From Longimicrobiales bacterium (lineage in GTDB: Bacteria; Gemmatimonadota; Gemmatimonadetes; Longimicrobiales; Gaopeijiaceae), in NCBI GenBank assembly GCA_965198065.1, contig CBDAON010000004.1, forward strand, positions 1,312,001 through 1,376,000: a stretch of DNA of 64,000 nt, given 5' to 3'. The translations under genes and the position numbers were made by a program. Below the pieces are notes generated by a model that saw nothing but the letters and a program-made list of their open reading frames with translations, ran no database searches and was not told the origin of the DNA. Below, piece after piece: positions 15,839 through 32,959 of the stretch. Positions within the stretch are counted from its first letter, which is position 1. Each line of letters begins with the position of its first letter.

Positions 15839-15861
15839 CTCCTAGGGCTCCTTCCTTGACC

Positions 15862-16890
15862 TCAGCGGCTGGGGCTGAAGCTCCGTTTCGGGACCGGCAG
15901 CGGGAGCTCCGGCCTTGCGGCGTGCAGCGGGTCGGGAGCGCGGGTGGCGGCCACGGCCACCGGCTCCCGTTCGGCCTGTCGATCGCGGTTTCGGGCCAGC
16001 ACGAAGTCGGAGATCTTCTGTGCGTCGGCCGCGGCGCGGCGGATCTCCCTTGGGTCCTCCTCGAGCGCCGCGACCCACCCCTCGACATAAGCGGCCCCCC
16101 GGCTCGGGTCGTGGCCGACGCCCACGCGCTCGCCCGTCATCATTGCGCTGATCTCCGCGCGGAGCTCCTCCTTCGCATAGGCCGGTGAGCCGAACCCTTC
16201 GCCGATCCCTTCGATCAGCGTTGCGCGGTTCATCCGCTCGGGATGGCCGGTGCTGTGCCCCAGCTCGTGGAGCGCGGTCTGGTAGTAGTGGTTGGCCGAG
16301 GGGAACTGCACCCGCTCGGGGAGCACGATCTCGTCGTGGTTCAGGTTGTAGAACGCCCGGTCCCCCGCCACGTGACGGACGGTGACCCCGCTGTCCTCGA
16401 GGACGCGTTCGGCCTGCTGGTGCACCTTCCAGAGCGGCTCGGCCGTTGGTGTGGGCCGGGCCGGCAGCCCGTCGGCCTGCCCGGCGTTGAAGACGTTGTA
16501 CTGCCGGACGACGGGCGTGGGCAGGCGCTCGTGGCGGTAGATGCGCTTGCCTTCGTTGTCCCTGACCGGCCGCCCGCGCTCGTCGGTCACAGAGATCTTC
16601 CGGTGGTCCTGGAAGGAGAGGATGCGGGTGCCCTGCTCGCCTTTTCTGACTTGGCCGCCCCGGGCCTGGATCTGACGGTAGGTTCCCCAGCGGACGTCGG
16701 CGTAGCCGCGTGACTGTGCGACGGCCGCGAGATGCAGGCTGTTCCCTCCCGAGTAGGAGCGTCCAGTATCGACGTTGGCGGGAAGCACACGCTCGCCCGG
16801 CCCCCAGGGCTTCTGCCAGGGCGCAGTGCCCTGGCGGATCTGCTCGATGACCCGGTCGGCGAACTGGCGGTGATATTCGTCGTGTTTCAT
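15862..16890 (-). CDS. ardC: ArdC-family ssDNA-binding antirestriction protein (DUF1738 + zincin-like)
   Basis: APWQKPW, YSGGN, WGTYRQ, VRKGE, ALHELGHSTGH, YAKEELRAE. Confidence 0.9.
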   Translation of the reverse strand: MKHDEYHRQFADRVIEQIRQGTAPWQKPWGPGERVLPANVDTGRSYSGGNSLHLAAVAQSRGYADVRWGTYRQIQARGGQVRKGEQGTRILSFQDHRKISVTDERGRPVRDNEGKRIYRHERLPTPVVRQYNVFNAGQADGLPARPTPTAEPLWKVHQQAERVLEDSGVTVRHVAGDRAFYNLNHDEIVLPERVQFPSANHYYQTALHELGHSTGHPERMNRATLIEGIGEGFGSPAYAKEELRAEISAMMTGERVGVGHDPSRGAAYVEGWVAALEEDPREIRRAAADAQKISDFVLARNRDRQAEREPVAVAATRAPDPLHAARPELPLPVPKRSFSPSR

Positions 16891-17117
16891 CGGTCTTCCT
16901 CCTCGGGGCCGTGCGGATCCTCCGAGGCGTCTCGGATCTCGTCCTCGGTGCCCACGTCCTCGGGGAAGAGGCCGTACTGCTGGGCCAGCGATGCCGGCAC
17001 CTCGAGGGCCTCGCCGCCGTCCCATGCGAGCTCGCGGTCGAAGTCGTCGAGCGTCTCGACGCGGACGATCTTCTCGTCGCTTTCCATGGGTTCACTCCTT
17101 GGCTGTTGGTTCTTCAT
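16887..17117 (-). CDS. Small acidic hypothetical protein
   Basis: RBS GGAGG; stop overlaps the ardC start (ATGA). Confidence 0.55.
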   Translation of the reverse strand: MKNQQPRSEPMESDEKIVRVETLDDFDRELAWDGGEALEVPASLAQQYGLFPEDVGTEDEIRDASEDPHGPEEEDR

Positions 17118-18075
17118 CGTGCTTCCTCCAGACGGTGTCGGTGAGCCAGCGGTTGGCAGCCGAGTCGTAGCTCCGGACCCTGATCGCCTCCTCGACGAAG
17201 CGTCGGCCCCCTCGCCGGGTCATGTGAACGACGAGATGGATGCCGTCGACCACGCCCCTGCAGGTGACCTCCCAGGGGAGCGCCCCTCCTGCCTGCATGG
17301 CGCAACTCGCCAGGCGCGATAGCGCGGAGCGGGCATTGTTGGCGTGGACGGTGGTGAGCGATCCGCCGTGGCCGGTGTTCAGCGCCTGCAGCAGATCGGC
17401 GGCCTCGCCGCCCCTGACCTCGCCGACGACGATGTGGTCGGGCCGATGGCGGAGAGCGTGGCGGACCAGGTCGCGGATCGACACGGGCGCCTCGGAACCC
17501 GCCGCTCCGGCCTCGAAGCGCAGGCAGTTCGCGCGCTCGATCCTGAGCTCGAGCGTGTCCTCGATGGCGACGATGCGCTCCTCCTCTGGGAGCAGCTCGA
17601 TCAGTGCGTTCAAGAGCGTGGTCTTGCCCGAGCCGGTGCCTCCGGAGACCAAGATGTTGCGCCGCGAAGTGAGAGTGTCGCGGGCGACGAGGAACACCTT
17701 TTCCGGCAGGGCGCCCTGCCGCACGAGGTCTTCGGCCGAGAACGCGCGGCCCCCAAACCGGCGGATCGTCATGGCCACGTGGGGGCTCGCGGGCGGCGTG
17801 CATATGGCGACCCGCGAGCCGTCGTCGAGCCGCGCGTCGAGGATGGGGCGCGCGGCCGGATCGAGCCCGAGCGGCCGCGCGATGTGGATGGCCGCCCGGT
17901 AGAGCGCGGCGGCGGTGAGCGCCGGTGCCTCGAGGGGCTCGAGCTCTCCGCCGCGCTCGACCCAGACGTTGCCGGGGCCGTTGATCATCAGCTCGGAGAC
18001 CTCCAGGTCCTCGAGCACGCCCTCGAGGCCCGGCAGGAACGGCTTCAGGTGGCCGATTCCGCTTGCGCGCTTCAT
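17092..18075 (-). CDS. virB11: VirB11/TrbB/CpaF-type secretion ATPase
   Basis: SGGTGSGKTT, IEDTLEL, RHRPDHIVVGEVRG, NTGHGGSLTTVHAN; ATG overlaps the virD4 stop. Confidence 0.9.
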   Translation of the reverse strand: MKRASGIGHLKPFLPGLEGVLEDLEVSELMINGPGNVWVERGGELEPLEAPALTAAALYRAAIHIARPLGLDPAARPILDARLDDGSRVAICTPPASPHVAMTIRRFGGRAFSAEDLVRQGALPEKVFLVARDTLTSRRNILVSGGTGSGKTTLLNALIELLPEEERIVAIEDTLELRIERANCLRFEAGAAGSEAPVSIRDLVRHALRHRPDHIVVGEVRGGEAADLLQALNTGHGGSLTTVHANNARSALSRLASCAMQAGGALPWEVTCRGVVDGIHLVVHMTRRGGRRFVEEAIRVRSYDSAANRWLTDTVWRKHDEEPTAKE

Positions 18076-20111
18076 ATCCGGCCCTCCTCGCGGAGCCGCC
18101 AGTAGCCCACGTCCCTCGGCAAGTAGTGGGGCTTCAGGTAGACGCGCCGGGCAGGGAGCGACTTCGTGCCGTCGTAGGGCAGACAGATCGCCTGGTAGTT
18201 GGCCAACAGCGCGAACTCGCGCGGCGTGAACACGGGCTCCCTCTGCTGCCGGAACGACTTGCTCGCGCCGATCGTGCCGCGGCCCCCTCCGGCGCGTCCC
18301 GACAGCAGCGAGAACTCCGGGCGGCCCGTGGTCTCGGTGAACGTGTAGGAGGGCTGCGTCTTCATGACGCTCCCGCACATCTCGGACGCGATCCGGGCCG
18401 ACGACTCGTCGCTCAAGGACAGGAAGATCCGGGTGCGGAGCGTCTGGACCAGGGTGCGCCAGGCCTCCGTGCCCGACAGCACGGAGCGGAGCGAGGAGAT
18501 CGACTGCGTGGCCACGATCGGGATGCAGCGGCACTGCCGCGTCAGCGCGAACGCCTTCTCGTCTCCGGACGGATCGTCCTGGCCCACGGTGGCGAACGCC
18601 TGGTACTCGTCGCAGATGAACACTGCGGGCCGGAGGTAGCGGCCGGGCTGGCGGGCGGCCTCGGCAGGCCGCCGGAGCAACGCCTGTATCCAGGCATTCT
18701 TCAGCAGCACGCCGATAGCGCGTCCGAGCGCCGGGTTGGCGCCCGCGGGCATGTTGAGGGCGAGGACCCGGCCCTCTTCGATCAGCTCGGCGAGCGGTGG
18801 CAGCCGGCGGCGGAGCCCCGGCATGGGCCGGACGGCCTCGGGGTCTTCGTCCGGCGCAGCACTATACATATGTATGGATTCATCCGGCTCCGGAGGAGGC
18901 GGACAGAACATGCTCGCGACCTGCGGCTGGTCGAAGAGGGACAGGAAGACCGAGATGCCCTCGACGATGGAGGTGCGGAGCTTGGGGTCGAGCGCCATCC
19001 AGTCGTTCAGGTACCAGCGCTCGATCGCCTCCACCTGCTCCCTGAGCTCGCTGCCCGCGCCGCCCTCGCTCTCCTCGGTCTCGAACGGGATCTCGAGCTC
19101 GGCGAGCCGATCGCTCAACCCGGGATCGAGCTGGCAGGTGGCCTTATCGGTGCCGGCCACCGGCTCCCAGGCCCAGTCCTCGAGAGACTCCTTGTGCGTG
19201 AACAGATCGCTGCCGGCGACGGTGACCCGGACCGGGCAGAGGCGGGCGACCAGATCCCGGGCCGCGCCGATCTTTCGCGCGAACAGCTCCGCGTCGATCG
19301 TGCAGCGGTAGATGTCCTGGAGCGTGACCCAGCCCCCCGGCAAGAGCCGGTGCAGTTCGATGATCCAGCGCACGAGGTTCGTGTAGGCTTGCTGCCAGAA
19401 CGGTTCGCGACTCTTGCCGAAGAGCTGGTTGATCAGGGAGGCGACGCTGTAGGCGAGCGAATAGGTGTCGAGCAGCGGATCGTCGAGTGGGTTCCACTGC
19501 CAGGCGCCGCCGAGGCCGATCTCCAGGTAGTCGTCCCCGCGCCCGGCGCCTTCGAGGATCCGGCGCACGCTATGACAGAAGTCGCCCTTGACCTCTAGCA
19601 CCAGGGCGCTGGCCCGTCGTGCGGGCCGGTCGGCCTGCCAGGAGAGGAGCTGCTGGGCGAACGGATACATGCAGGCTGAGGTCTTGCCGGAGCCGACCGC
19701 CCCGACGATGAGCACGCCCGTATACAGCCCCGTCTCGGGGATCACGAGCCAGGAGGGCCGCTCGCTCTCGCGCGGGACGACGGGATGGTGGAGCTCGCCG
19801 ATCACGAGCGATGGTGTCTCGTCCTCGGGCGAGGCGGGCCAGGGTGGCAACGTGCCCCGGCGCCCTCCTCCCGCTCGTGGCTGGAGCCAGACTCTCCAGA
19901 CCGAGAGGCCGAGGCTGCCGAAGAGCACCACGGCGACGGCGGGCGCCACGTAGTACCAGACGCGGATCACCGTGTGGAAGCCCGGATCGTGGTAGGCGAT
20001 CAAGTCCAGCACGGGGTTGCCGCCGGGGCCGGGGAACGGCGCCCGGAACGCGTGAGCGATGGCGGCCGCCGAAGCGAGGCCCACGAGTACGAGCGTCGCG
20101 GGCTTCAGCAT
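18072..20111 (-). CDS. virD4: Type IV coupling protein (VirD4/TraG-like)
   Basis: N-terminal TM segments, GAVGSGKT, LEVKGDF, FICDEYQ, VATQS. Confidence 0.85.
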   Translation of the reverse strand: MLKPATLVLVGLASAAAIAHAFRAPFPGPGGNPVLDLIAYHDPGFHTVIRVWYYVAPAVAVVLFGSLGLSVWRVWLQPRAGGGRRGTLPPWPASPEDETPSLVIGELHHPVVPRESERPSWLVIPETGLYTGVLIVGAVGSGKTSACMYPFAQQLLSWQADRPARRASALVLEVKGDFCHSVRRILEGAGRGDDYLEIGLGGAWQWNPLDDPLLDTYSLAYSVASLINQLFGKSREPFWQQAYTNLVRWIIELHRLLPGGWVTLQDIYRCTIDAELFARKIGAARDLVARLCPVRVTVAGSDLFTHKESLEDWAWEPVAGTDKATCQLDPGLSDRLAELEIPFETEESEGGAGSELREQVEAIERWYLNDWMALDPKLRTSIVEGISVFLSLFDQPQVASMFCPPPPEPDESIHMYSAAPDEDPEAVRPMPGLRRRLPPLAELIEEGRVLALNMPAGANPALGRAIGVLLKNAWIQALLRRPAEAARQPGRYLRPAVFICDEYQAFATVGQDDPSGDEKAFALTRQCRCIPIVATQSISSLRSVLSGTEAWRTLVQTLRTRIFLSLSDESSARIASEMCGSVMKTQPSYTFTETTGRPEFSLLSGRAGGGRGTIGASKSFRQQREPVFTPREFALLANYQAICLPYDGTKSLPARRVYLKPHYLPRDVGYWRLREEGRI

Positions 20112-20160
20112 CGCGCTGGCACCCTTCCCGGAGGGATACATGGCCGGGAGCGACCCCGCC

Positions 20161-20397
20161 GGGGGCAGAGCGTGTGAAAACACGCACGCCCCCACGCCAT
20201 CACTAGGGCGTCCGCGGGCGGGGTCGCTCCCATATCCGCCTCATCGGCCCGTCTGGCCACGTCCGGCCGGGCAGCTGAGGCGTAAGACGCAGTGGCGTCG
20301 GCGCATATGCGGTGGGCCGCGTGTGAATCAGGGCCGGGCCATTCTGTGAATCGACCCCCCGCGTCGTTTTCACGTCCTAGTGGTGGCATGACACGCA
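20161..20397. other. Highly structured intergenic segment (candidate oriT, ssDNA signal or ncRNA)
   Basis: GCGTGT-GAAA-ACACGC hairpin; 15-bp long-range stem 20196-20210/20373-20387; nested GCCTCA/TGAGGC stem; repeated TGTGAA. Confidence 0.45.
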
Positions 20398-20403
20398 GGC
20401 CGG

Positions 20404-21338
20404 TCATCGGAAGTGCGCCCCGGAGAGGCGCACCGTTTGCCAGGTGCGGCCGGTGTGGATCGGCCCTCGGCCGCGCTGCCGACGTGCCTGCTTCGTCAGC
20501 GTGACGCTGCGTTTCAGGGCGGCTTGCAGGCCTCCGAACTCGTCGAGGATCTGGATCGCACCTTGAAGGATGGCGCGCTCGATGCGGTCGATCTCTTCAC
20601 GGATCCCGGCGTCCGGTTCGGCCGGGCCGGAGGCTTCTGCCCAGCCGCCGAGTATCGCCCGGGCCCGAGCAAACTCCTCGAGGGTGCGGACGACGGCCAC
20701 GACCTCGACGGATCGGCCGCGCTCGCTGAGCGCTTTCCAAAGGCCGCGGTGCGCTTCGCCCCAGGAGCGGAGCGCGGTCGTGGTATCGTGTCCGGGATCG
20801 ACGTAGACGAACACGGCGCGCTCGGCTTCGAGCGCGACCGGCAGCTTGACTGGGAAGTAACGCCGCGTGTTACCGGCCGCTCCGCGGTAGAGCCGCGAGG
20901 GCAGGATCCGGCGTTCGATGCCGAGCGCCTCGAATGCGCCGACCTTCTCGGACTCGGTCGGCAGCCACGGCAAGTCGGGATGCTCGAGCACGTAGTCGAG
21001 CGAGAGCAGGCGACGCATGAGCACCGCCTCGGAAGCGGCCCGGCGGTGGCGGATGTCCTCGGCGCCGAGCGCTCGGTAGATGCGCCGGCTGAAAATCCTG
21101 CACACGCGGCCGATGCCATTGATGCCGGGCACGGTCTCTTCGGTGGCCGCGCCTTGCGCGATCAGGGCGTGGACGCCGCGCCGCACCTGTTCGGGATGCG
21201 CATCGAGGAACCGGGACCACTGGGCGCGGATGAACACGCCGCTGTGGAGACAAGCCAGCGCGATCCATTCGGGGCCTGGCGTCCCGTCCAACCGAACGGC
21301 TCAAGGGCCGCTTCCCGTCCCCGCAGATGGGCGATCAC
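20404..21338 (-). CDS. wHTH-containing hypothetical ICE protein, frameshifted near 21272
   Basis: GTG start overlaps the virB8 stop; VIAHLRGREAALEPFGWTGRQA joins EWIALACLHSGVF across a homopolymer run. Confidence 0.65.
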
Positions 21339-21804
21339 CTGGGCTGCTCCGTGACCAGGGCACGGTCGGCCTGGAGGTAGGTGATGAGGATGCCCATCGG
21401 GTTGTAGACGACGAACTCGGAGGGAATGACGGTGAGGAACGTGAACCGGAGCGTGATCGACCACCGCTCCCTCAGGGTCTCCTGCCCCTGCCGGAGGTGG
21501 ACTAGGTCGAAGTCGGCGGTCGCGCCGTGGGGTGCCTCCGGTGCGGGGTGGATGCGGAGCACGGCCTGCTCGACCTGGAGCTCGGTGTCGGCGGTGCCGG
21601 CCGCCATGGCGGCGACCTCGGCGCCGTCCCTCGTGAACGCGGCGTTCGCCAGCTCGGTCGAGAGGAAGCGTAGGCTCCGGGTCCAGTGCTCCTCGACCGT
21701 CGCCTGGCGCCTGGAGTAGAAGTCGGCGATGAACCGGTTCAGGAAATACTTGGTCGTGGGATCGAGCGGATCCGCCTGCGCCGTTGCGGCCTCGTAGGCC
21801 ACGG
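21335..21804 (-). CDS. virB8: VirB8/TrbF, 3' part (gene split by element 1)
   Basis: VAYEAATAQ...KYFLNRFIADFYS...YNPMGILITY (VirB8 NPxG motif). Confidence 0.85.
21786..21804. repeat. att core, left end of element 1
   Basis: GCGGCCTCGTAGGCCACGG, identical at 26777-26795. Confidence 0.92.
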
Positions 21805-21913
21805 ACATCCAGAATCTACCGGTGTCCAGTGCCATCCAGATAGATTGCTAAATTACTGTAGTTAAAGGGCTTTATCTACCTTATCCGGCATCTTGCGCGG
21901 CTCGCTACATCCC

Positions 21914-21942
21914 TTGATATCCATCTCCATCCCCTATATTAT
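21914..21942 (+). promoter_or_regulatory. Sigma70-type promoter of integrase 1 (probably leaderless)
   Basis: TTGATA-17 bp-TATTAT, ATG 6 nt downstream; same arrangement upstream of integrase 3. Confidence 0.7.
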
Positions 21943-21948
21943 GAGGGT

Positions 21949-23181
21949 ATGAATGCCGTAGAGAACACCGCCGATCCGCCCCGGAAGACCAAGCCCAAGG
22001 GCCGTCACCCCGACAAAGCCCTGTCCGCCGCCTTCGTGCGCACGGCCCCGCCGGGCAGATATTGCGACGGCAATGGGCTCTACCTCTTCGTTCAGCCGAG
22101 CGGAGCCCGGAGCTGGATTCAACGGCTGGTCATCCGCGGCCGTCGCCGTGACTGCGGACTCGGCAGCGTCGCGCTGGTCTCGCTCGCCGAGGCTCGAGAG
22201 AAGGCGCGGGCCAACCGCAAGCTGGCCCGCGAGGGCGGCGACCCGCTGGCGGAGAAGCGCCGCGCCCAAGGCGTGCCCAGCTTCGCCGAAGCCGCTGCGC
22301 GCGTGGTGCAGCAGAAGCAGGCCGGTTGGCGCAATCCGAAGCATTGCCGCGACTGGATGTCGAGCCTGAGGCGATTCGCCTTCGCGCGCATCGGCGAGAT
22401 ACCGGTGTCGCAGGTGACGAGCGCCGACGTGCTGGAGATCCTTGCTCCGATCTGGCACACGAAGGCGACCACCGCCCGGAAGTTGCGCCAGCGCATCCGC
22501 ACGGTGTTGGAGTGGGCCGTGGCGATGGAGTTCAGGACCGACAACCCGTGCGACCGCCTCGGGCCGGTGCTCGGAGCGCAAGACGCCGTGGTGCAACACA
22601 TGCGGGCCTTGCCGCATCGCGAGGTGGCATCGGCCCTCGAGACGGTGCGGGCATCGGAGAGGATGCCCGTCGTCAAGCTGGTGTTCGAGTTCCTGGTGCT
22701 GACGGCGGCGAGGTGGGGCGAGGTACGGGGGGCCGAATGGGCCGAGATCGATCGGAGGGAGGGTGTGTGGACGGTTCCAGCCACACGGATGAAGGCGAAG
22801 CGCGAGCACCGGGTGCCGCTGTGCCGCCGCGCCATGGAGATCCTCGAGGAGGCGCGGACGCTCGACGACGGCAGTCCGCTGGTGTTCACCGACGGGGCAG
22901 GCAGGCAGCTCAACGGCAAGCGGCTGCGGCGGCTGCTCCGAAAGCACGGGATCTCGGCCGTGCCGCACGGCTTCCGGTCCAGCTTCAGGGACTGGGCGGC
23001 CGAGGAAACGGACCATCCGCGCGAGGTGATCGAGGCGGCGCTGGCGCACGTGGTCCAGAACAAGGTCGAGGCCGCGTATCGGCGCACGGACCTGTTCGAG
23101 CGCCGCCGCCTGCTGATGAACGATTGGGCCGGGTATCTGGCCCGCGAGCGTCGAGACCCGGAGGCCGGTCCCAGCCGCTGA
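21949..23181 (+). CDS. P4-like tyrosine integrase (Arm DNA-binding domain)
   Basis: DGNGLYL, GLGS..VSLAEAR, LTAARWGE, HRVPL, PHGFRSSFRDW, ALAH, AAYRR. Confidence 0.95.
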   Translation: MNAVENTADPPRKTKPKGRHPDKALSAAFVRTAPPGRYCDGNGLYLFVQPSGARSWIQRLVIRGRRRDCGLGSVALVSLAEAREKARANRKLAREGGDPLAEKRRAQGVPSFAEAAARVVQQKQAGWRNPKHCRDWMSSLRRFAFARIGEIPVSQVTSADVLEILAPIWHTKATTARKLRQRIRTVLEWAVAMEFRTDNPCDRLGPVLGAQDAVVQHMRALPHREVASALETVRASERMPVVKLVFEFLVLTAARWGEVRGAEWAEIDRREGVWTVPATRMKAKREHRVPLCRRAMEILEEARTLDDGSPLVFTDGAGRQLNGKRLRRLLRKHGISAVPHGFRSSFRDWAAEETDHPREVIEAALAHVVQNKVEAAYRRTDLFERRRLLMNDWAGYLARERRDPEAGPSR

Positions 23182-23249
23182 GGCGCGAGCCGTTGAGGCC
23201 CGATCCGAGGCCGATCCACGGCTGGCTCATGACCCCTTAAGGGTCAAGA

Positions 23250-23308
23250 GCCAGCCTACCCTTTGTACCCACAAAGGGGCTGGCGAGGGGCTCCGCCCCT
23301 TCGATCCC
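23250..23308 (+). other. oriT-like hairpin A
   Basis: GCCAGC-cta-CCCTTTGT-accc-ACAAAGGG-GCTGGC then GGGGCTCCGCCCCTTCGATCCC; homologous block in element 2. Confidence 0.5.
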
Positions 23309-23551
23309 GAAGGATGCCCGCGCTCTGCTGCGGTGTGCCGTGCTCGCCCAGCGTGCGAGCCGTGTCCGGTCGCGCCCGATGGAGCCTGGCCAGGCGGCTC
23401 CGCAGCGACCGCCTCAGCGTCACCGGCGCAGCTCGCGCCCACGCTCGGCGGACACCGCTCGAGGGGTTGGCCGAAGGGCCGGAGTCCCGGGGAAGGCGCC
23501 TGGCCCCGGGAGGGAAGGAGTGGCCCCCCGGTTCCGATGCCACGGGCTAAT

Positions 23552-24172
23552 TCAACTGAACGTCGCGGCCCCCGAGAACGACTCGTTGATCTGAGCGCCG
23601 CACGCCTGCCCGGCGACTGTGATGCTGAACCCGAGCAACGCGTCCGGATCATCCACCGACTCCAAATCCACATCCATCCGGCATGACCCACTCCGACCGT
23701 CGCCCGTGGCCCACTGAACCGTCCCGGCCACGGTGCCGCTGATCTCGAACATGAACTCTGTCGAGATTGACAGCTCGATGCTCATCTCCACCTCGGGCGC
23801 GCCGTCCACGGTAAAGGTGATCCCGGTCCCCGTGTGCCTCTCCATGCAATCCGCGTGAACAAGGGTCGCCGACACGCCCACGCCGGCGCCGTCGTCGCCC
23901 GGTCCTAGGGAAGGCGTGACCTGTGCGTCCACTGCCACCGTTCCACCTATCGTGCATTGGCCCGTGAACTGTAGGCTGGCGCCGCCAGGGGTCACGATCT
24001 CGTTGATTTCGTCGCCGCTCAGCAGCTGGAGGCCGGGGTTCATCGTTACCTCGAGGAGCGCGAGAGCCTCCGCCGGGGTCAGCGAGTCTTCGGGCTCCGT
24101 CGAGCTGCCACCGCCGCAAGAAGCCACGGCTAGTCCGACACTCAGAATCACCCCTGCTCGAATTCGGCGCAT
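23552..24172 (-). CDS. Lipoprotein cargo, unknown function
   Basis: Signal peptide with VASC lipobox; RBS GAGGA. Confidence 0.75.
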   Translation of the reverse strand: MRRIRAGVILSVGLAVASCGGGSSTEPEDSLTPAEALALLEVTMNPGLQLLSGDEINEIVTPGGASLQFTGQCTIGGTVAVDAQVTPSLGPGDDGAGVGVSATLVHADCMERHTGTGITFTVDGAPEVEMSIELSISTEFMFEISGTVAGTVQWATGDGRSGSCRMDVDLESVDDPDALLGFSITVAGQACGAQINESFSGAATFS

Positions 24173-24189
24173 AAGTCACGTCCTCTGTT

Positions 24190-24400
24190 GTGGCAATTTC
24201 TGATTCGGGAGCGCCAACTCGCGAATCGATCCCGGCCGGTCGCCTGAGCGGGCGTGAGCGGGATCACCCGTTCCGCAACCACCGGCGAGCCCTTCTCTTC
24301 GGCACGCCCCGACCGTGTCCGGATGTGCCGTGATAACACTCCCGGAGCCTAGGAGGTCCTGTGTGGGCGCCGCCGGGTTGAGCCGGAGTGAGATCCCTGA
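24190..24400 (-). pseudogene. Decayed mobC-like (RHH) gene
   Basis: Fragments ISLRLN, LSRHIR and IRELA in shifting frames, downstream of an oriT-like hairpin. Confidence 0.35.
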
Positions 24401-24522
24401 CTCGGGCTCGGGTCGGTCACTTTGTGACGAGCGAGTACCGGCGTTCAGTAAGGCCAACAGCACGGCAGGCGGGCGAGCGAGCCGGGCGGCCGCTCGCTGC
24501 CCCGGCAGCGGCCCGGTAAGTT

Positions 24523-24615
24523 GGGGGTTCAAGGGGGGCGCAGCGTCCCCTTGGCCAGACCGCAATGTTTGACATTGCGTGGGCTGGCTTAAGCACCTTA
24601 GTGTCCGTCTAAGGT
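24523..24615 (-). other. oriT-like hairpin B
   Basis: GCCAG..CGCAATGT-ttg-ACATTGCG..CTGGC flanked by CTTAAG/CTTAG/CTAAG repeats and a GGGG...CCCC stem. Confidence 0.45.
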
Positions 24616-24912
24616 GGCGCGACGGCGGTCGGAAACGCACCCGCCGGGGGGGTGTTGGCCCCCGGCTTGCGCGTCCCCTCTGAGTTGCTGGTGAAGCTCT
24701 CGTGGGCTCACCTCCGGAGCCGGTCACGGTGCGGGGGGGTGAAGCGATCCGGCGCGCAAGCCCGCCAGGTTCGCACGTGCGGGGATCGGATCGGCGGGGC
24801 ACACGGGGCCTCCGGGGAGCTTCACCGCCGGGGGGATCGCATCGCAAGCGCTGGCGCTAGGCAGGGGCGGTCTGAAGGAAGTAGTGGTCTGATCTTCCTG
24901 TAACGAAGACGC

Positions 24913-25299
24913 TTAGGCTGGGTCTCCTTTCTTGATACGAATTCCTGCGCAGAAATAAGCGATGATCGCCCACGCCGGTATGACCAAGTACGGAAACGGG
25001 TCGGTTGCGATCTCGAAGGCAATGTCATTTCGCAGAATAATCAACAGCACTATAGACACCAGAGCCAAGGCTTCTACGGACCTCCGAAGCATCGTCTCCT
25101 TTCTCAAGCCTAGGAGTCTCCTCTTTCGAGACCGGTAGGCGAGAGCGCCAAGAATCATAATTGGTCCGGCAATGAATCCTGCCGTGTCGTCCCCGGCCGC
25201 CAACCGGGCGGGAGCTCCGAGGAAGTAGATGGCGCCAAACACAATGGCCAGAGTGGATCCTAGGAACCGCATGTCTGGCACGAACCGGTTCGCTTTCAC
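24913..25299 (-). CDS. Small integral membrane protein cargo
   Basis: About four hydrophobic segments; GAGGAGG RBS before GTG. Confidence 0.65.
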   Translation of the reverse strand: MKANRFVPDMRFLGSTLAIVFGAIYFLGAPARLAAGDDTAGFIAGPIMILGALAYRSRKRRLLGLRKETMLRRSVEALALVSIVLLIILRNDIAFEIATDPFPYLVIPAWAIIAYFCAGIRIKKGDPA

Positions 25300-25720
25300 G
25301 ACAAACGCCTCCTCACCCGTAGGATGTAGCGAGAGGCCAATCTTAGGGGATCGCATCCGGGAGCGAGCCCGCCGGGGCGGATCGGATCGCAAGCCTGCCA
25401 GGCGCGCACATGGCTGCCTCCGGACCTACTGGGAAAGGTGCACCGGGTGGTGCCGTTAGTCCGACGGTCCAAGAGAAACCGGTGTGTAGAATGCGACCAT
25501 GCGGCACGTGTGGCATACGAGAGGAATTACGGGGAACAACTCATCTTCCTCGGACTGCCCCTGGAGGAACCATAGCCTACTGCCGGGTTCCAGAGTTTCT
25601 TGGTTCCGGCAATGTAGGCAGATGATGCCATGCTGGCGCAGGTGAGCTGATTACTCTCCTCAGCTCTTCACTGGTCAGCTTATCGGACCGGGTGTACTCG
25701 ATTCTGTCCGGATCCATGCG

Positions 25721-26311
25721 TCAGCCGCAGGCTTCCTCATTCACGCGGAGGTAGTCGAGGATGAACCCGTCCAGGTACTCGGACACCGTTTGCATGATGA
25801 AGCTCGCGCTCCCGCCGTGTGTGCCGATGGTGTCCCTTTCCCATGTGGTGGCCACCCCCGATTCTCCGCTTCTGGGGTCTTGGACGGACTTAAAGAGCTC
25901 TAGGCTGATATCGAACGCCGGGCTGAACGTCCTGATATTCAGCTCCAGCATCTGGCCGCCGCCCGAATCGTACAGCCTAGCGGCCCGCAACCGGCTCTCC
26001 ACCATCGTCCAAACGCGCTCCTTGGTGAGCCCCATTTCCTCCGCCTCGTCGCCTGAGACTAGACCGACGGCATACACCGGCGCGCACTCGGTGAATAGCC
26101 CGAAGCGGTCAACGTACGTCCCGTCCAAAATCTCCGCGAACACGTTGCACGGCGGCAGTGCCTGGTCCGGGTCGGCGGACACCGGCGGAGCGCCTGACGG
26201 GTCCTGCTCCGGGGCGGGCTCCGCCCTGTCGAAGTCGTCAACCTGGCACGCGAGCGGCACGGCGAGCGCGAGGCCCGCCAGAGCGAGCTGGCAGACACGG
26301 TGGGCGCTCAC
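25721..26311 (-). CDS. Lipoprotein cargo (paralogue of 41118-41960)
   Basis: PLAC lipobox; FTECAPV, ESRLRAA, FILDYLRVNE motifs shared with the paralogue. Confidence 0.75.
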   Translation of the reverse strand: MSAHRVCQLALAGLALAVPLACQVDDFDRAEPAPEQDPSGAPPVSADPDQALPPCNVFAEILDGTYVDRFGLFTECAPVYAVGLVSGDEAEEMGLTKERVWTMVESRLRAARLYDSGGGQMLELNIRTFSPAFDISLELFKSVQDPRSGESGVATTWERDTIGTHGGSASFIMQTVSEYLDGFILDYLRVNEEACG

Positions 26312-26562
26312 GGGGCCGGGCCGGGCTCGGGGGGGCGCAGCCCGGAGCCGCGCCAGCCGTCGATCAGCCCCTCGATCCGCGCCACGCGTTCCCGCAGGTC
26401 CGCGACGTCGCGGCGGATGGCGACCGCGAGCACGATGCCCACGCCGTCCGCTCGATGGCGGCGAGGGAGCCCGCGCGGAGTCGGATCAAGACTTGTTCGG
26501 GGTACAGCGTTCGCCGCCGGGACATTCGGCGGGGCTCTTGTCCGCCTCCAAGCGTGCGCCAA
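26308..26562 (-). CDS. Short coiled-coil peptide, possibly a remnant
   Basis: IRRDVADLRERVARIEGLIDGW heptad; stop overlaps the next start; N-terminus unconvincing. Confidence 0.35.
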   Translation of the reverse strand: MAHAWRRTRAPPNVPAANAVPRTSLDPTPRGLPRRHRADGVGIVLAVAIRRDVADLRERVARIEGLIDGWRGSGLRPPEPGPAP

Positions 26563-26760
26563 GGGACGGTTGGTCCGGTCATTGCTCGTCCTCCGTTGCG
26601 TCGGCGCGGACCTTCAATCCCCACTGTCTAACCGACGGGTTCTGCAAGGTTCCCTTCCGCGAACGTCCACTGGGGTCGAACGGATTCCCGTACGGAAAGA
26701 GGGATCTAATGAGGGGATCGGAGAGAGTTGGTCAGCAGTAAGTTATTATATATCAGTATC

Positions 26761-26994
26761 TTATAATCTTTCTGTCGCGGCCTCGTAGGCCACGGCCTCG
26801 GCGCGGCCGACCTCGTCGACCCGCACCACGATGGGCCTGGGCGGCTCGACGGTCGCGATGCGAAGGAGCAGGACGGCGAGCGCGAGGCATCCCCCTGCTA
26901 GGATGATTGCAAGAGTCCGGAGCTTTCGGTTCGCCTCGACGGTCTCGCCCCAGATCTCCGCGTACTCGCGGCCGGCATCGTGTTCTCGGTTCAT
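26761..26994 (-). CDS. virB8: VirB8/TrbF, 5' part (truncated by element 1)
   Basis: MNREHDAGREYAEIWG...TM...PIVVRVDEVGRAEAVAYEAA, then a stop inside the element. Confidence 0.85.
   Translation of the reverse strand: MNREHDAGREYAEIWGETVEANRKLRTLAIILAGGCLALAVLLLRIATVEPPRPIVVRVDEVGRAEAVAYEAATERL
26777..26795. repeat. att core, right end of element 1
   Basis: GCGGCCTCGTAGGCCACGG. Confidence 0.92.
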
Positions 26995-27005
26995 GGATGT
27001 CTCCT

Positions 27006-28016
27006 TCAGCCTCCGGGGACTGGGGGGCGGGGCGGGTTCGCGGCAGCCGTGAGGCGCCCGCCGCCGCGCACCACGAGCGCCATCATGCCCGACCCGACGG
27101 ACCCGGATCCGGAGACGAGCATCGCGGCGAGCTCGCCCACCTTCATGCCGGCCATCAGGCCGGAGACGACGAGCGGGAGGAGAACGACGACCCACAGCCC
27201 CAGCTCGGCGGGGTCGGAGGAGCCGGTGCCCATCAGGGCACCGGTATAGGTGGTGACGTAGCCCATGCCCACGCCCATGAACACACGGAGGATGGCTCCC
27301 GCCACGACGCCGTAGAGCGTGTAGACCATGAGCGTGCGGAACCATCCCCAGAACAGGAACGCGAGCGGCTCGAACAGCAGCCAGGGGATGAACACGGGGC
27401 CCAAGAGGATCACGATCGCGAGCGCCACCTGCGCCCAGATCACCTGCGCGTAGGTCAGGCAGAAGAGCGCGACTAGGCCGAGCACGAGCGGCACGCCCAT
27501 CATCAGCGCGACGAGGGCGGAGAAGAACACGCTCACGCCCTCGGTCACGAGGGTCATCAGGCTCCCGCCCGACCATGCCGCGCCGAGCCGTGCGGCGAAC
27601 GCCTGCACCAGCGCGGTCATCTCCGTGTAGCCGACCGACACGACGTCGGAGATGAACAGGTTCTGGAGCCAAATCCCTCCGGCCGCCACCGTGGCCGGGA
27701 ACGTGAACCCCACGCCCGGGATCGGGACGCTGTAGTAGTGGAGTAGCGTCCGGGGGATCGCGATCCCGAGGACGACCCGCACGAGCGCCCAAGGCTCGAG
27801 CGTGCCGCTGTAGGCGATCTTGAGGCCGGTCCAGGCGACGACGATCGCCGCGAGACCGCCCCAGAGTTGGTGGCCGAGCGTCAGCACGTCGGGCGCGGCG
27901 CCGCCGATCACCGTATCGAGCACGACGTCCAGGAACCCCTTGAAGTCCTGGAGCTGATCCGCGGGGATCTGGGCCGGGACGTTCGGATCGATCGACTGAG
28001 GGGGAGGAAGTTGCAT
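27006..28016 (-). CDS. virB6: VirB6/TrbL-type inner membrane T4SS protein
   Basis: Polytopic, LLGPVFIPWLLFEPLAFLFWGW; position in the operon. Confidence 0.85.
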   Translation of the reverse strand: MQLPPPQSIDPNVPAQIPADQLQDFKGFLDVVLDTVIGGAAPDVLTLGHQLWGGLAAIVVAWTGLKIAYSGTLEPWALVRVVLGIAIPRTLLHYYSVPIPGVGFTFPATVAAGGIWLQNLFISDVVSVGYTEMTALVQAFAARLGAAWSGGSLMTLVTEGVSVFFSALVALMMGVPLVLGLVALFCLTYAQVIWAQVALAIVILLGPVFIPWLLFEPLAFLFWGWFRTLMVYTLYGVVAGAILRVFMGVGMGYVTTYTGALMGTGSSDPAELGLWVVVLLPLVVSGLMAGMKVGELAAMLVSGSGSVGSGMMALVVRGGGRLTAAANPPRPPVPGG

Positions 28017-28035
28017 GACGGTCGCTCCCCGGGGC

Positions 28036-28947
28036 CTAGGCTTGGCCGCCCATGTAGAACGACGGGACCTTGAAGAGGAGCCCCTCCCGGAGCCGGTCGC
28101 GATTCTGGAGCGCGGCCGCCCGCATCTGCTCGTACATCGCGTTCGTACGGAGGCGTGCGTCCCTCCACTCGGCGAGCCGCTCGAGCCGGTCGATCTCGGC
28201 CTGCTGCATCTGGTTCGCCTGCTCGACGGCCTGATAGGCGAGCACCTGCGCCACGGCGGCGTTGATCCGGCCCTGCGTCAGCGCGGCAGCCACTTGCGCC
28301 TGCTGGAGCGCCGTGTTGGACAGATTGCCGTTCGCGGTCAGGTCGTCGAACGAGCCCTGTGCGCTCTCGACGGTCGAGGCGAGCGAGGCCGCGGCGTCCA
28401 TCATCGCGTAGTCGAGCACGCGCTGGCGGTCGGCGGCCTCACGGGCCTGGCGGTAGTCCTCAACCGCGCGCGACGACGCCTCGGCCGGGCGGTTGCGGAA
28501 CAGCTCGAGGATGTCCGCCTCGCTCACCTGGTCGGCCACCCCTTGGGCGCTCCGCCAGACGTCGGTGAACGAGTCGCCGCTCCCCATGTCACGCACCGCG
28601 TCGACCAGCTCGCCGGCTGCGCCGGTGAAGTCGGAACCCCAGTCGAGGCCGTCGCCGACGAGGCCGATGGACCCGGCCGCCAGCTCCGCGAACGGCTCGA
28701 TCAGCCCATCCACCTCGCCCCGCGCAACCTCCTTCATGTAGTCGAGCTGCTCCTCGAGCTCGGTGAGCTGGCGGGTCATCGTCCGCATCTGGCGGATCTG
28801 GTTCGCGATCTGGGTCGCCTGGTTCACGATCATCTGGGCACGCTGAATCGCGCCGCTGATGGCGCCCAAGAAGGCTTCGGCCGGCGCCGCGCTGGTCAGG
28901 ATCAGGATCGGGACCAGGAGGACGGCGGTAAGGGTTCGGTGACGCAT
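28036..28947 (-). CDS. TrbJ/VirB5-like T4SS protein
   Basis: Signal peptide, NQATQIANQIRQ helical Q-rich segment; AGGAG RBS (alternative start 28968). Confidence 0.7.
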   Translation of the reverse strand: MRHRTLTAVLLVPILILTSAAPAEAFLGAISGAIQRAQMIVNQATQIANQIRQMRTMTRQLTELEEQLDYMKEVARGEVDGLIEPFAELAAGSIGLVGDGLDWGSDFTGAAGELVDAVRDMGSGDSFTDVWRSAQGVADQVSEADILELFRNRPAEASSRAVEDYRQAREAADRQRVLDYAMMDAAASLASTVESAQGSFDDLTANGNLSNTALQQAQVAAALTQGRINAAVAQVLAYQAVEQANQMQQAEIDRLERLAEWRDARLRTNAMYEQMRAAALQNRDRLREGLLFKVPSFYMGGQA

Positions 28948-28964
28948 TAGAGGCTCCTTTCGTC

Positions 28965-30251
28965 TCATTGCCGTGTCCCGGGCCTGGGGACCAGGACATC
29001 GGAGGTGAACCAGATGCGCAGGCGGTGGCCCGCGCGGATCGTGATCGTGGGAAGCCGGTTCAGGAACCGGTCGAGGACCGAGGTGGCGCTCTGGCCGAGG
29101 CCCTGGCCGATGCCAGCCCTCAGGCCGAACGGCGAACCACCGGCCAGCGTGAGTCCGCTCAGGACGCCCACGGCTCCGGCGGCCGCGAACGTGCTGAAGT
29201 AGTGGCGATCGACCTCGTCCCGAAGCGCACCCTCGCCCGCCTGGTTCAGGCCGGTGAACTCGAGGCCGATCCAGCTCCCGCCGGGCAGGAGGAGCCGGTG
29301 GAAGCCGACGGCCAGCCGGCTCTGGTCCTGGTCCTGAACGGCCTGGGCCGTGCCGACGACGCGCGTGCCGCGCGGGATCAGAACCCGTTGGCGGTCGGCC
29401 GAATAGAACGGCACCGAGACCATGGCGAGCACCGGTCCGGGGAAATCGCCCGTGAGCTGCGTGAGAAGCACCGCCTCGAGGAACGAGCCCTCGTGGATCC
29501 GCTCCCAGCCCGGCGGGTCTTCGGGCCGGACGCTCCGGCCGAGCTGAATGGGGCTCGGCGTCCGACGGGAGGCTTGCTGCGGCATCGCGCTTGCCGGCTC
29601 CGGGGCCGGTGCAGCCAACCCCAGAGCTCCGAGCAGCCGCTCTTCGGCTGCCAATTCGTCCTCAAGCGTCGCGACGGACTGCTCGAAGGAGGCGAGCGCC
29701 GCTTGGACCGTGTTCTCGAGGAACGCCACATCCGCGTCGGCCGCATCGCCGGTGCGCGGGCCGCCAGCCTCGGACGACTCCAGAGTCGCGTTTGGATCGC
29801 GGTACGACTGGGCCACGGGAAGGGTGCGGAGCGAGCGTGTTCTTCGCTCCAGCTCCTCCAGCCGAAGCGCCTCCCGAAGCTCCGACTCCACCGCTCCGAT
29901 GCCGAGGGCAGCGGTGTTCGGCGCCTGGGACTCGGCCTGGATCCGGGCCATCTCCTCGGCGGCAGCGGCCTGCCGGCGCTCGAGCTCGGCGCGCGCCCGT
30001 GCGGCGGCCTCCAGAGTCTGCCGCTCGGCCTCTTGCCGAATGCGCGCCTGGAGCGACCTCCCCATCCCGTCGTCGACAGCCTGCGCCTCGGGCAGGGCTA
30101 CGAGAGTGTCGGCTTCCTGGGGACCCGTCATCGCCCAGGAGAAAAGCAGTCCACCGACGAGCACGGCGATCAACACCACGCCCGCCTTCGTCACGATGCC
30201 GCCCGGCAGCGCGCCTTCCGGGGGCCGGACCCACTGCTTCCAGCGGCTCAT
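28965..30251 (-). CDS. virB10: VirB10/TrbI
   Basis: GSFLEAVLLT, LIPRGTRVVG, G.GALRDEVDRHY, PTITIRAGHRL. Confidence 0.9.
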   Translation of the reverse strand: MSRWKQWVRPPEGALPGGIVTKAGVVLIAVLVGGLLFSWAMTGPQEADTLVALPEAQAVDDGMGRSLQARIRQEAERQTLEAAARARAELERRQAAAAEEMARIQAESQAPNTAALGIGAVESELREALRLEELERRTRSLRTLPVAQSYRDPNATLESSEAGGPRTGDAADADVAFLENTVQAALASFEQSVATLEDELAAEERLLGALGLAAPAPEPASAMPQQASRRTPSPIQLGRSVRPEDPPGWERIHEGSFLEAVLLTQLTGDFPGPVLAMVSVPFYSADRQRVLIPRGTRVVGTAQAVQDQDQSRLAVGFHRLLLPGGSWIGLEFTGLNQAGEGALRDEVDRHYFSTFAAAGAVGVLSGLTLAGGSPFGLRAGIGQGLGQSATSVLDRFLNRLPTITIRAGHRLRIWFTSDVLVPRPGTRQ

Positions 30252-31110
30252 CGGAGCGCTTCCGCGGCGTGAACCGCCAGGCAGCCCGCTTGTCGCCGAT
30301 CTGCAGCCACCCGTCGGCCAGTACGTGGCGGGCGACGTACAGCCCGTCATCCGTCAGATCGTAGGCCACGAGCGCCGGTTCCCCGTCCCGGAGCTCATAG
30401 AGCGCGGGCGACTCCTGTGCGTGGGACCTCAGATAGGTGAACTGCCCGTCGTGCCACATCGCCTCGACCAGGAACGGTCGGTCGGCCGCGTCCCCGTCGA
30501 GCCGGTACTCGAACGCGAGACGCTCCGGATAGGCGGCACGGAACTCCTCGATCGCCGACTCAGCCTGAGTCCGGGCCTCCAGGATGCTGGCCTCGGCCGC
30601 CTCCCGGGCACTCCGCGCGGCCTCGGCCGCCTCGGCGGCCATCTGTTGGTAGGCCGCGACCTCGCTCCGCGCGACGAACGCGGGACGGCCGCTGCCTCCA
30701 GAGAGCCGCGCCGCCTCTGCTCCGGACTCTACGCGAACGACCAGATGAGGCGGCCCGTCGCTGTGCTCGGCCACCAGGAACGAGTAGATCCGCCCCGACT
30801 CGCAGACGAGCGCGATGTTCGTCGCCGCGTCCGGCCGCAGGGGTTTCAGGAACGCGACGTTCGCGGCGCCCGCCAGATGCCAGTACTCCGAGTCGCCGAC
30901 CACGAAATCCAGGATGTTCTCATCGGCGGGGAGCACGATCACCGTCGTGTGACGGACCTGCGTCCGCAGCCGGTGGATGCGGTCCTCGCCCTCCTCCGGG
31001 ACCGGCACCCGGAGGAACGCTTGGTCGTCCTCCTGCTGGGCGGTAGCCCCGGCGGGGAGGGCAGCCAAGAGAAGGGCGGTTAGAACGAGGGGTGCCATTG
31101 GTGGTCGCAT
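29662..31110 (-). CDS. virB9: VirB9/TrbG; the recognisable domain ends near 30260 and the ORF then runs on into virB10
   Basis: Signal peptide, TTVIVLP, GDSEYW, FLKP, ATNI, WHDGQFTYL, PALY. Confidence 0.8.
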   Translation of the reverse strand: MRPPMAPLVLTALLLAALPAGATAQQEDDQAFLRVPVPEEGEDRIHRLRTQVRHTTVIVLPADENILDFVVGDSEYWHLAGAANVAFLKPLRPDAATNIALVCESGRIYSFLVAEHSDGPPHLVVRVESGAEAARLSGGSGRPAFVARSEVAAYQQMAAEAAEAARSAREAAEASILEARTQAESAIEEFRAAYPERLAFEYRLDGDAADRPFLVEAMWHDGQFTYLRSHAQESPALYELRDGEPALVAYDLTDDGLYVARHVLADGWLQIGDKRAAWRFTPRKRSDEPLEAVGPAPGRRAAGRHRDEGGRGVDRRARRWTAFLLGDDGSPGSRHSRSPARGAGCRRRDGEVAPGAHSARGRAADSGGRRTGARRARAPAGRCRRGDGPDPGRVPGAEHRCPRHRSGGVGASGGASAGGAGAKNTLAPHPSRGPVVPRSKRDSGVVRGWRPAHRRCGRRGCGVPREHGPSGARLLRAVRRDA

Positions 31111-31116
31111 GGCGTG

Positions 31117-32959
31117 TCAGCTCCTTGCGTTGGGGGTGGGGGTGGGGGTGGGATCGTCTCGGCTCGCGAGCACCTCGAGCGCCCGGCTGAGTCCGTGACG
31201 CTCGACGGCCCGGGCCCGCTCCTCGGCGTCCAATGCGGACGAGGTGTAGAGCCAGTAGCTCTCCGGATCGACCTCGAGCCGGAGCACCGCCGCCCCGTCC
31301 GGGCGGCGCAGGTAGAGCTCGCGTTTGGGGATCAGGCCCCGGACCTGGGCCAGCTCCGACTCGTTCAGCCGGAACAGCGCTCCGACCTCGTCGGGGAGCT
31401 CCGGGTTCGCGAGGAACAGCTTGGTCGGGATCGACTCGAGGAGCGCCGCCGCGCCCGGCGTGGCCGTGACGTCCACCGCGGACTGGGTGGCGAGGATCAG
31501 CGCGGCGTTCTTCTTCCGCCACGTCTTCGCCGCCTCGGCCAGGTAGCTAAGCACCGCCGGGTCCTGCAGGTAGCGCCAGGCTTCGTCCACCACCATCAGC
31601 TTCAGCCGCGTCGCCTCGGACGGATCCTCCACCTCGAGCCGCATCCGCTCGAGCAGATAGGAGAGTGCCGCGTCGCAGAGATCCGGATGCTCGACCGCAC
31701 CCGCCAGATCGATCACCTGCCAGTCGGCGAACTCGAGGTCCGGCGCCCCGCCCGCCGGGTTGTCGAAGTAGGCGCCCCACGCGCCGCCTTGGGTCCAGCG
31801 GCTCCATGCCGGCCACGTCGCGGACGGAAGCGAGCTTGCCAAGACGCTCAGCGTGCGCCGCTCCGGCTCGAACGCGTAGAGGTCCTCGATCCGCGCCCGG
31901 ATCTCGCTCGTATCCGCCCCGCTCGCTTCCCAACCGCCGAGCTTCAGGAGCCGGAGCACCCAGCCGGTCAGGAACTGGAACGTCCGCGTGCCCGCCGGCA
32001 GGGCGAACGGCTGAAGCCGGAGCGTCGGCTCCGCCTCCCCGGGCGAGAGCTCCAGGTAGCGGCCCCCGAGGAACCGGGTCAGCCAGCGGTAGGAGCCGCC
32101 CAGGTCCAGGATCAGGACGCGCGGGTCGTACCTGAGAGCTTCGACCAGCAGGAAGTTGAGCGTGAAGCTCTTCCCCGAGCCGGTCGCGCCGAGCATCAGC
32201 GTGTGGCCTACGTCGCCGGCAAACAGGTCGTAGTGGTACGCCGTACGCCACGGGGTCTCCAAGACCGCGAGCGACTCGCGACCGAGATGCTTGCTCTTTG
32301 CCGTGCCCCGGGGCGGCCCGAAGAGCGGCGCCAGGCTCGCCGCCACACCGGCCGACACGAACACCTTCCGCACCTGCCGCCCACGCGGCTGGGCCGGCAG
32401 CCGCGCGAACCAGGCCGGCAGCTGGCCGTAGCCCTCACGGATCACCTTCGCGGCGTGCGCGGCGAACAGCCGACGCAGGTCGCCGTCCACGCGTTCGATG
32501 CTTCCCAGCTCGCCGTGGAGGGCCACGGTCAGCGTGGCCTCGCCGTAGCTCACCCCGTCCGCTTCCAGCTCGACCAGCGCCTCGCCCAGCCGGTCGGACT
32601 CGGTCGCCGCGGCCGAGTCGACCATGGCGGCCGCCGTGCCCTCGGTCTCCTGCACATGCGCCATCATCGAGTAGCGCCTGGCGAAGTAGTGGCGCTGCGC
32701 GCCACGGATCCGGCGCCTCGCCGCCTCCATCGCCCACGGCCGCCACTCGAGCGAGACCGTCATCGCCGCGTCCAGGCAGTAGAGCTCCTGGAGCAGGTTG
32801 GCCCGGGCCTGCCCAGGCGGGGACAGAAGCGAGTACAGGATCACCGGCTGGCCGTCGAGGCGCAGGTGCCCTCGCTCCGCCTCGAGTTCCGAGAGGGCGA
32901 GCCGCCAGTTCATACCGCTCCCCGTCGCGCCGTCCCACACCGTGCCCGGACGGTTGATC
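31117..32959 (-). CDS. virB4: VirB4/TrbE ATPase, 3' part (gene split by element 2)
   Basis: GHTLMLGATGSGKS, DLGGSY, VVDEAW, RKKN, ATQS. Confidence 0.9.
32949..32959. repeat. att core, left end of element 2
   Basis: GACGGTTGATC, identical at 37251-37261. Confidence 0.85.

Follow-up and report, generated by a model that had tools for sequence, protein, structure and literature searches.

In Firmicutes, integrative mobilizable elements (IMEs) are found in traG (VirD4), maff2 or SNF2 of Tn5252-superfamily integrative and conjugative elements (ICEs), examples being IME_Sco1050_traG_site1/2, Tn6104 and IMESp2907. For those residing in traG, it has been proposed, without a test so far, that they are excised upon ICE induction, restoring the transfer gene (PMC5704250). 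Here we describe an integrase island of 4,991 bp (core to core) that splits virB8 of an ICE in Longimicrobiales bacterium, a member of Gemmatimonadota (assembly GCA_965198065.1, contig CBDAON010000004.1, positions 1,312,001 to 1,376,000). This stretch of 64,000 nt as a whole is called the window, and positions are given within it. Judging by its sequence, the island is probably an ICE-embedded hitchhiker with an origin of transfer (oriT) as its only transfer function, which on excision would restore virB8 and likely moves on the relaxase and the channel of other elements.

As in the case of the Firmicutes traG IMEs, this is a small element with a site-specific insertion in a conserved gene of an ICE; in both cases, one gene can have several sites and one ICE several elements. 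However, the Firmicutes traG and maff2 IMEs are listed with serine integrases, and those in the mobilisation table encode their own relaxase (PMC5704250), whereas the virB8 island has a P4-type tyrosine integrase, no relaxase, a Gram-negative VirB/Trb target and a Gemmatimonadota host. It is not a member of that IME group.

The features of iOriTs (bioRxiv 10.64898/2026.01.13.699239), that is, an integrase, attachment (att) sites, an oriT-like sequence, the lack of relaxase and mating-pair genes, and a length above 4 kb, are all found in the virB8 island, its putative oriT being recognized by position and likeness. The described iOriTs come from six nosocomial species and have oriTs matching the helper relaxase, and a word search of the available text gave no mention of nesting inside ICE genes. 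The motif of the virB8 island, in contrast, matches relaxase-bearing sister islands and not the ICE backbone, which implies two helpers.

Helper-embedded phage-inducible chromosomal islands (PICIs) are similar in that the satellite resides in a helper gene whose expression needs excision, and in that an integrase clade repeatedly evolves new sites in helper genes; their helper is a lambdoid prophage, with the site in a late gene, and the satellite has AlpA and replication genes (PMC10111431). The virB8 island differs in having an ICE as the helper and no AlpA, replication or capsid genes.

Islands with P4/CP4-57 (IntA-like) integrases usually target and regenerate ends of tRNA, tmRNA or housekeeping genes (guaA for GIsul2). 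Unlike HPI and GIsul2, the family of the virB8 island inserts at short motifs within mobile and multi-copy genes; in the present case, the gene is disrupted. Shared with these islands are the domain composition Arm-DNA-bind_3, Phage_int_M and Phage_integrase, the position of the integrase by one end, and an IHF-like (integration host factor) site; the excisionase class of P4/CP4-57 islands is the AlpA type (PMC9376610).

Nested elements are common in Faecalibacterium, with no mention of virB8 in the available text (PMC12084326). The literature searched contained no island in virB8 or trbF (most subscription papers lay outside the search, and TIGER target tables may hold such sites), nor anything on ICEs in these hosts.

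The att repeat and the in silico restoration of virB8

The island is flanked by the 19-bp direct repeat GCGGCCTCGTAGGCCACGG, which is exact and has no extension on either side (Table 1); with up to three mismatches, the window contains three matches to this 19-mer, compared to 0.06 expected from shuffles. Joining 26994-26777 (218 nt) to 21785-21335 (451 nt) indeed produces, as a preliminary description of this locus had claimed, an open reading frame (ORF) of 669 nt, i.e. 222 aa and a stop, with no internal stop and with the junction translated as GRAEAVAYEAATAQADPLDP. In the integrated state, the 5' part of virB8 encodes 77 aa, ends with ...AYEAATERL and stops at 26761.

After in silico excision, the joined protein aligns over residues 1-222, with no gaps, to two uninterrupted paralogues from the same genome, with identity of 93.2% and 91.4%; at the DNA level, virB8 of the island-bearing ICE copy differs from them in 49 and 63 of 669 nt. 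The core occurs five times in the genome (3.05 Mb, 4 contigs), twice inside uninterrupted virB8, and the two uninterrupted paralogues are natural empty sites. When the Pfam VirB8 hidden Markov model (PF04335) is applied, the halves cover model positions 4-66 and 67-212, each below the cut-off, while an intact paralogue scores 48.2 bits (cut-off 23.2). The in-frame join, the complementary Pfam halves and the paralogues support the assignment of the repeat as the att identity segment of an integrase island within virB8, and we are practically certain of this structure, an integrase island bounded by att repeats and splitting virB8.

The length of 19 bp assigned earlier to the att core holds for the repeat, but the zone of strand exchange is narrower. 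A junction from another genus, G056, shares just the first 16 of the 19 core bp, hence the exchange would have occurred within those 16. Likewise, the dyad reported in the core is present, but it does not stand out, as the intact 669-nt virB8 contains 22 such dyads with 5-bp arms, five of them with a 3-nt spacer. A dyad as a rule of the family was rejected, since such a dyad recurs in only one of the 16 other cores of the family. The crossover zone could be a 7-bp overlap with the dyad at its centre.

In VirB8, a short cytoplasmic tail is followed by one transmembrane helix and a periplasmic domain; the protein is essential in all type IV secretion systems (T4SSs) studied (PMC6003364). The insertion point falls between the membrane anchor and the periplasmic domain. 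The 3' part has an in-frame ATG within the island but no membrane anchor, and is therefore presumed to be non-functional.

In public sequencing runs, the integrase-side junction is found on unbroken contigs of X1 and X2 (one sample, possibly the source sample). Neither the far junction nor an attP circle joint or a loose end is among the matches listed from public-run contigs; contigs drop rare forms, so the lack of the two latter has no weight either way. No RNA dataset is among the matches listed, and run X9 has no cover at 21820-21904.

Use of the site in other genomes

In G056, the 5' half of a virB8 allele with 73% identity adjoins a near-identical island end, which includes the same IHF-like site. 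Moreover, contigs from runs X3 and X5 (two other studies) cross virB8 and the core and continue into 13 and 27 letters of the island, respectively; these stretches, below the 31-letter threshold, give a weak hint of site reuse.

In 15 related genomes, chosen for holding the core, there are 71 VirB8 matches, of which 42 are full length and one shows this junction. When core-bearing loci were read, 23 of 30 proved to be virB8 (one belonging to this genome), with no break at the core in any of them; the core is absent from all 79 integrase loci described below. The junction pattern has 0 matches in viral contigs and two in JGI metagenomes, both by chance, with unrelated flanks, while in a 401-genome phylum sample the matches outside this genome all have 1-2 mismatches (20 loci).

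The hairpin motif as a likely oriT

The preliminary description passed over the oriT-like motifs of the island, its lack of an excisionase and another island of the same ICE, the one in virB4. The motif, present in the island in two copies, is structured, non-coding and about 100 bp long. In 13 hand-picked copies, 8 of 28 predicted pairs are changed on both sides. It is found in 40 of the 79 loci; in 17 of 18 relaxase loci (these are related, so not independent), it precedes the relaxase gene by 170-400 bp and lies on the strand of that gene. Over 95 bp, copy 2 shares 85% identity with the motif that precedes the mobC-relaxase pair of a sister island embedded in virD4, and the genome contains two full-length modules of MobC and relaxase, in both of which a MobC/NikA-like gene lies between the hairpin and the relaxase.

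The 15 best plasmid matches of the relaxase, almost all of them next to mobC, have identity of 46-56% to it. A blastn search with the hairpin against 72,556 plasmids yields seven weak matches, six of them in small Aeromonas and Citrobacter plasmids, and in three of the seven a homologous relaxase lies about 420 bp downstream. A profile built solely from the islands, applied to one Aeromonas plasmid, has a match at E 2.6e-10, directly before the annotated mobC; in the Citrobacter plasmid L242 it missed the motif, though similar sequence is visible upstream of mobC. The nick region presumably resembles that of ColE1. The location upstream of mobC-relaxase in 17 of 18 loci and in Aeromonas plasmids makes the hairpins likely oriTs. 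In ColE1-like mobC-mobA modules, the oriT is located directly before mobC (PMC9282650, PMC5935869).

No relaxase, mobC or mating-pair genes are present in the island. The absence of mobC and relaxase, together with the absence of the motif from the ICE backbone, points to two likely helpers, with the relaxase coming from a sister island and the channel from the ICE. Rfam produced no match apart from tRNA-Ile, and PDB contains no relative of the relaxase.

Two other roles of the hairpin were considered and rejected. It is not the ICE's own oriT, being absent from either ICE backbone; a different motif, in the virD4-side intergenic region of the ICE, is common to the virB4 island and not to the virB8 island. 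Nor is it a guide RNA of a bridge-type recombinase, as it is 92% identical over 132 bp in L051, an island targeting virD4.

Integrase, IHF-like site and excisionase

The catalytic residues of the integrase, R255, K282, H340, R343, H367 and Y377, are all present in the alignment. The IHF-like site that the preliminary description placed at the far end, TATCAGTATCTTA, is the sole exact match to the consensus in the island and one of two in the window. Similar sites, with at most one mismatch, occur in 24 of 52 far ends of the family (duplicates kept), 21 of them at the same offset, compared to 3.4 expected. The genome contains two full-length genes of the HU/IHF family and one partial match.

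No match to PF05930 or PF12728 (HTH_17), expected for an AlpA-type excisionase, is found inside the island, and so the excisionase is likely supplied in trans, by AlpA of the ICE. The alpA gene is upstream of virB2 in 27 of 29 ICE copies with enough upstream DNA, and 38-39 of 51 residues are identical between AlpA of the ICE and island-borne AlpA. AlpA/Hef-type proteins promote excision of islands with this integrase class (PMC9376610). By inference from the sequence, it is ICE induction that would supply the excisionase.

The cargo ORFs have no Pfam matches over the cut-off and no NCBIfam or PADLOC matches; an Atlas search with one cargo protein returned unnamed clusters only, and no genes of defence families are among the cargo.

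Proposed mechanism and alternative explanations

Integration of the island duplicated the att segment and separated the VirB8 anchor from the periplasmic domain. The integrase and IHF would then excise a 4,991-bp circle, with AlpA of the ICE as the likely excisionase in trans, tying excision to ICE induction. The MobC/MobA relaxosome of a sister island would nick one of the two oriT-like hairpins, and the island may leave through the VirB/VirD4 channel of either the repaired ICE or the uninterrupted second ICE copy, to be reinserted, in the recipient cell, into an ICE at its conserved virB8 site.

Several observations weigh against this scheme. Excision and transfer are proposed from sequence data, with neither a circle nor a transfer event observed, and the likely status of the hairpins as oriTs comes from position and likeness, not from nicking. 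The assumption that relatives normally carry AlpA proved wrong, as just 3 of 41 distinct family ends have their own, which makes the link to AlpA of the ICE inferential; an undetected excisionase in the island is possible, and AlpA of the uninterrupted ICE copy 2 is in two pieces. The same ICE copy is also interrupted in virB4, therefore its repair in cis needs two excisions. In G056, the 29 kb adjoining the junction on its island side contain no integrase, and at L197 (G056:C1 near 433760) the 3' part of virB8 stops exactly at the right edge of the dyad and is followed by virB4 sequence. This virB8-virB4 fusion is a scar of deletion or aberrant recombination, and together with the orphaned junction it indicates that such insertions can decay. 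Finally, 13 of 123 distinct integrase-side junctions are in ICE backbone DNA, hence ICE targeting is true of some clades and is not a trait of the family as a whole.

A broader scheme can be put forward only tentatively. In this three-tier parasitic network, P4-type islands would have repeatedly evolved sites in the transfer genes of a multi-copy ICE and shed their excisionase, AlpA of the ICE would excise all of them at conjugation, and oriT-only islands would exit on sister relaxases. Equally tentative is its corollary, a just-in-time rebuilding of the channel genes, the islands having sites in essential genes (two in virB8, one in virB4 and three in virD4).

An unlikely, though not negligible, explanation is that the island is a stranded passenger, which integrated site-specifically, is no longer excised, retains oriT-like motifs as relics and moves in cis with the whole ICE copy via the machinery of another copy. 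The lack of its own excisionase and relaxase, the double interruption of the ICE copy and the orphaned G056 junction all agree with this, as does the abundance of decayed integrase fragments in the genome, where just 12 of 32 matches span at least 370 aa. Still, there is no damage to the integrase, to either end or to either half of virB8; the integrase has near-identical counterparts on many contigs, and the use of this site extends to another genus.

It is less probable still that the main effect of the element is to knock out transfer of its host ICE, with another ICE copy as the helper. The essential role of VirB8, noted above, and the sister islands in virB4, virD4 and a second virB8 site would suit such a pirate, and SGI1 is known to suppress its helper (PMC5704250). 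However, the family also targets multi-copy genes unrelated to transfer, conserved multi-copy sequence alone accounts for the choice of targets, and no defence-family cargo was found.

The idea that the ICE or the host keeps the island as a regulated on/off control of conjugation can be given very little credence. Excision would restore an essential gene precisely, and AlpA of the ICE heads the transfer genes, but occupancy is low, with a single junction of this kind in the 15 related genomes, no virB8 broken at the core among the core-bearing loci, and two island-free paralogues in this genome. A misassembly or a chance repeat produced by the collapse of ICE copies can practically be dismissed. 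The genome does have three similar ICE copies, and the first 2,072 bp of contig C4 are identical to window 34108-36179, but X1 and X2, which may themselves come from the source sample, have the integrase-side junction on unbroken contigs, the far junction recurs in G056, and the ends have the anatomy of the family.

With the island taken as an oriT-only hitchhiker of the ICE, the strategy of hiding in a transfer gene of the helper is extended from the Firmicutes elements with serine integrases to P4-type tyrosine integrases and a Gram-negative VirB system. The proposal (PMC5704250) that embedded islands are excised, and the transfer module repaired, upon induction of the ICE becomes testable with small parts, and ICEs recorded as broken in genomes of this kind may still be conditionally intact.

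Integrase family and its targets

The 79 best genome loci for the integrase have identity of 66-82% and belong to Gemmatimonadota (Longimicrobiales, Ca. Palauibacter), Acidobacteriota and one Gammaproteobacteria bin; these relatives, by the names of the assemblies, presumably come from sponges. At the protein level, 14 further clusters from public assemblies are 97-99% identical to the integrase, which is thus widespread. In 17 islands with both ends paired, this one included, the cores are 9-19 bp long and end 144-152 bp before the integrase start (144 here).

The targets in ICE backbones are ardC (one position, 4 loci), virD4 (three positions), the ICE integrase, an intergenic site, an unnamed gene and virB8, while 7 of the 123 junctions come after other P4-type integrase genes. 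Many other junctions are in recurring short motifs, which by eye look like ends of repeated gene families. In particular, the integrase-side flanks of L023-L042 and L047-L076 seem, by eye, to contain VTVTV repeats (Gemmatimonadota) and the C-terminal ...FALP-stop of a repeated gene family (Acidobacteriota).

In a FastTree tree of 108 integrases (midpoint root; partial or stop-containing integrases left out), clades follow the target, ardC with 4 of 4 and the ICE intergenic site with 5 of 5 integrases, each with support 1.00; the virB8 integrase has no close sister there. A family with many clade-specific targets of 9-19 bp is a natural set for studying target change in tyrosine integrases.

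In G130 and G058, a distant integrase (identity 42-43%) inserts at the second virB8 site, which is located near codon 90, and far ends matching this site are found in G000, G130, G058 and G172. The loci of this site are G000 C4:144043-144119, L198, L199, L200, L201 and L205.

The host ICE and neighboring elements

Table 1. Features of the virB8 island and of its host ICE (positions in the window)
Feature	Position	Strand	Remark
att identity segment, integrase side (attL)	21786..21804	.	exact 19-bp repeat; end 144 bp before integrase ATG
att identity segment, far copy (attR)	26777..26795	.	exact 19-bp repeat
virB8/trbF 3' part, periplasmic domain, host ICE	21335..21785	-	PF04335 67-212; in frame with 5' part
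virB8 5' part, cytoplasmic tail and transmembrane helix	26761..26994	-	PF04335 4-66; 77 aa integrated
attL inner arm, conserved short repeats (predicted arm-type sites)	21805..21948	+	consensus of 68 relatives
Sigma70-like integrase promoter	21914-21942	+	promoter scan: 1 found vs 0.3 expected
P4-type tyrosine integrase, 410 aa	21949..23181	+	Arm-DNA-bind_3, Phage_int_M, Phage_integrase
Hairpin copy 1, likely oriT of mobC-mobA (MOBP, ColE1-like) type	23208..23340	+	profile E 1e-29; fold z -6.7
Cargo ORF, 206 aa, lipoprotein-like N-terminus, no family	23552..24172	-	DNA homologues elsewhere in genome
Hairpin copy 2, inverted, second likely oriT	24504..24604	-	
Cargo ORF, up to 159 aa, hydrophobic, no family over cut-off	24913..25392	-	
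Cargo ORF, 196 aa, lipoprotein-like N-terminus	25721..26311	-	Atlas neighbours are unnamed hypotheticals
attR inner arm, conserved family end motif	26652..26776	+	near-identical end joined to virB8 5' half in G056
IHF-like site	26751..26763	+	13 bp inside attR core
Host ICE, right end approximate	12973..38990	-	colinear with copy 2 at C4:452347-468902
Second P4-type island, interrupting virB4 of the same ICE	32949..37261	-	integrase 35912-37147, 11-bp repeat
ICE AlpA, directly upstream of virB2; candidate excisionase in trans	38536..38688	-	PF05930

The host ICE comprises genes for an integrase, which adjoins tRNA-Ile, and a Replic_Relax-like gene, as well as ardC, virB11, virD4, virB8, virB6, trbJ, virB10, virB9, virB4, virB3, virB2 and alpA. 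The genome holds three similar ICE copies. Copy 2 has stop-free homologues of 14 of 14 backbone genes tested, while in copy 3 virD4 contains a 14.4-kb island and virB4 is occupied by the same island as in the ICE of the window. The ICE family is multi-copy, with up to nine VirB8 matches per genome.

The gene at window 14951-15838 is a candidate for a MOBC-like relaxase of the ICE. It has no Pfam match, and its nearest named Atlas cluster is Replic_Relax (0.90); PF13814 and PF08751 have no match in the genome, so that the assignment rests on this Atlas score of 0.90.

The virB4 island contains one copy of the hairpin and a gene for an outer-membrane beta-barrel protein, and the motif at 35190-35485, which it shares with the virD4-side intergenic region of the ICE, is a candidate oriT of the ICE. 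Integrases related to that of the virB4 island, with a virB4 flank, are located at C4:876659 and C4:3014. G000 C4:1-2072, identical by 100% to a part of the virB4 island, indicates that the assembly opens or closes inside a recent duplicate.

Nesting is mutual, as the ICE itself is found in or right behind P4-type integrase genes of the island family (G000 C4:451521-452347; L051; G000 C3:55326-56488).

A third P4-type island, of about 10 kb, occupies window 42112-52140 (integrase 50765-52024, 14-bp repeat) and contains two TIR-domain genes and a Schlafen/AlbA gene, all defence-like; the clade of its integrase inserts at a motif resembling the 3' end of integrase genes. The accessory region on the right contains a SelO-family adenylyltransferase (52757-54205), a part of a Mutator-family transposase (54524-55174) and a RepA-type replication initiator (60291-61136). 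To the left of the ICE, a short coding repeat array rich in D, E and W, with a period of 15 bp, is found at window 11200-11348.

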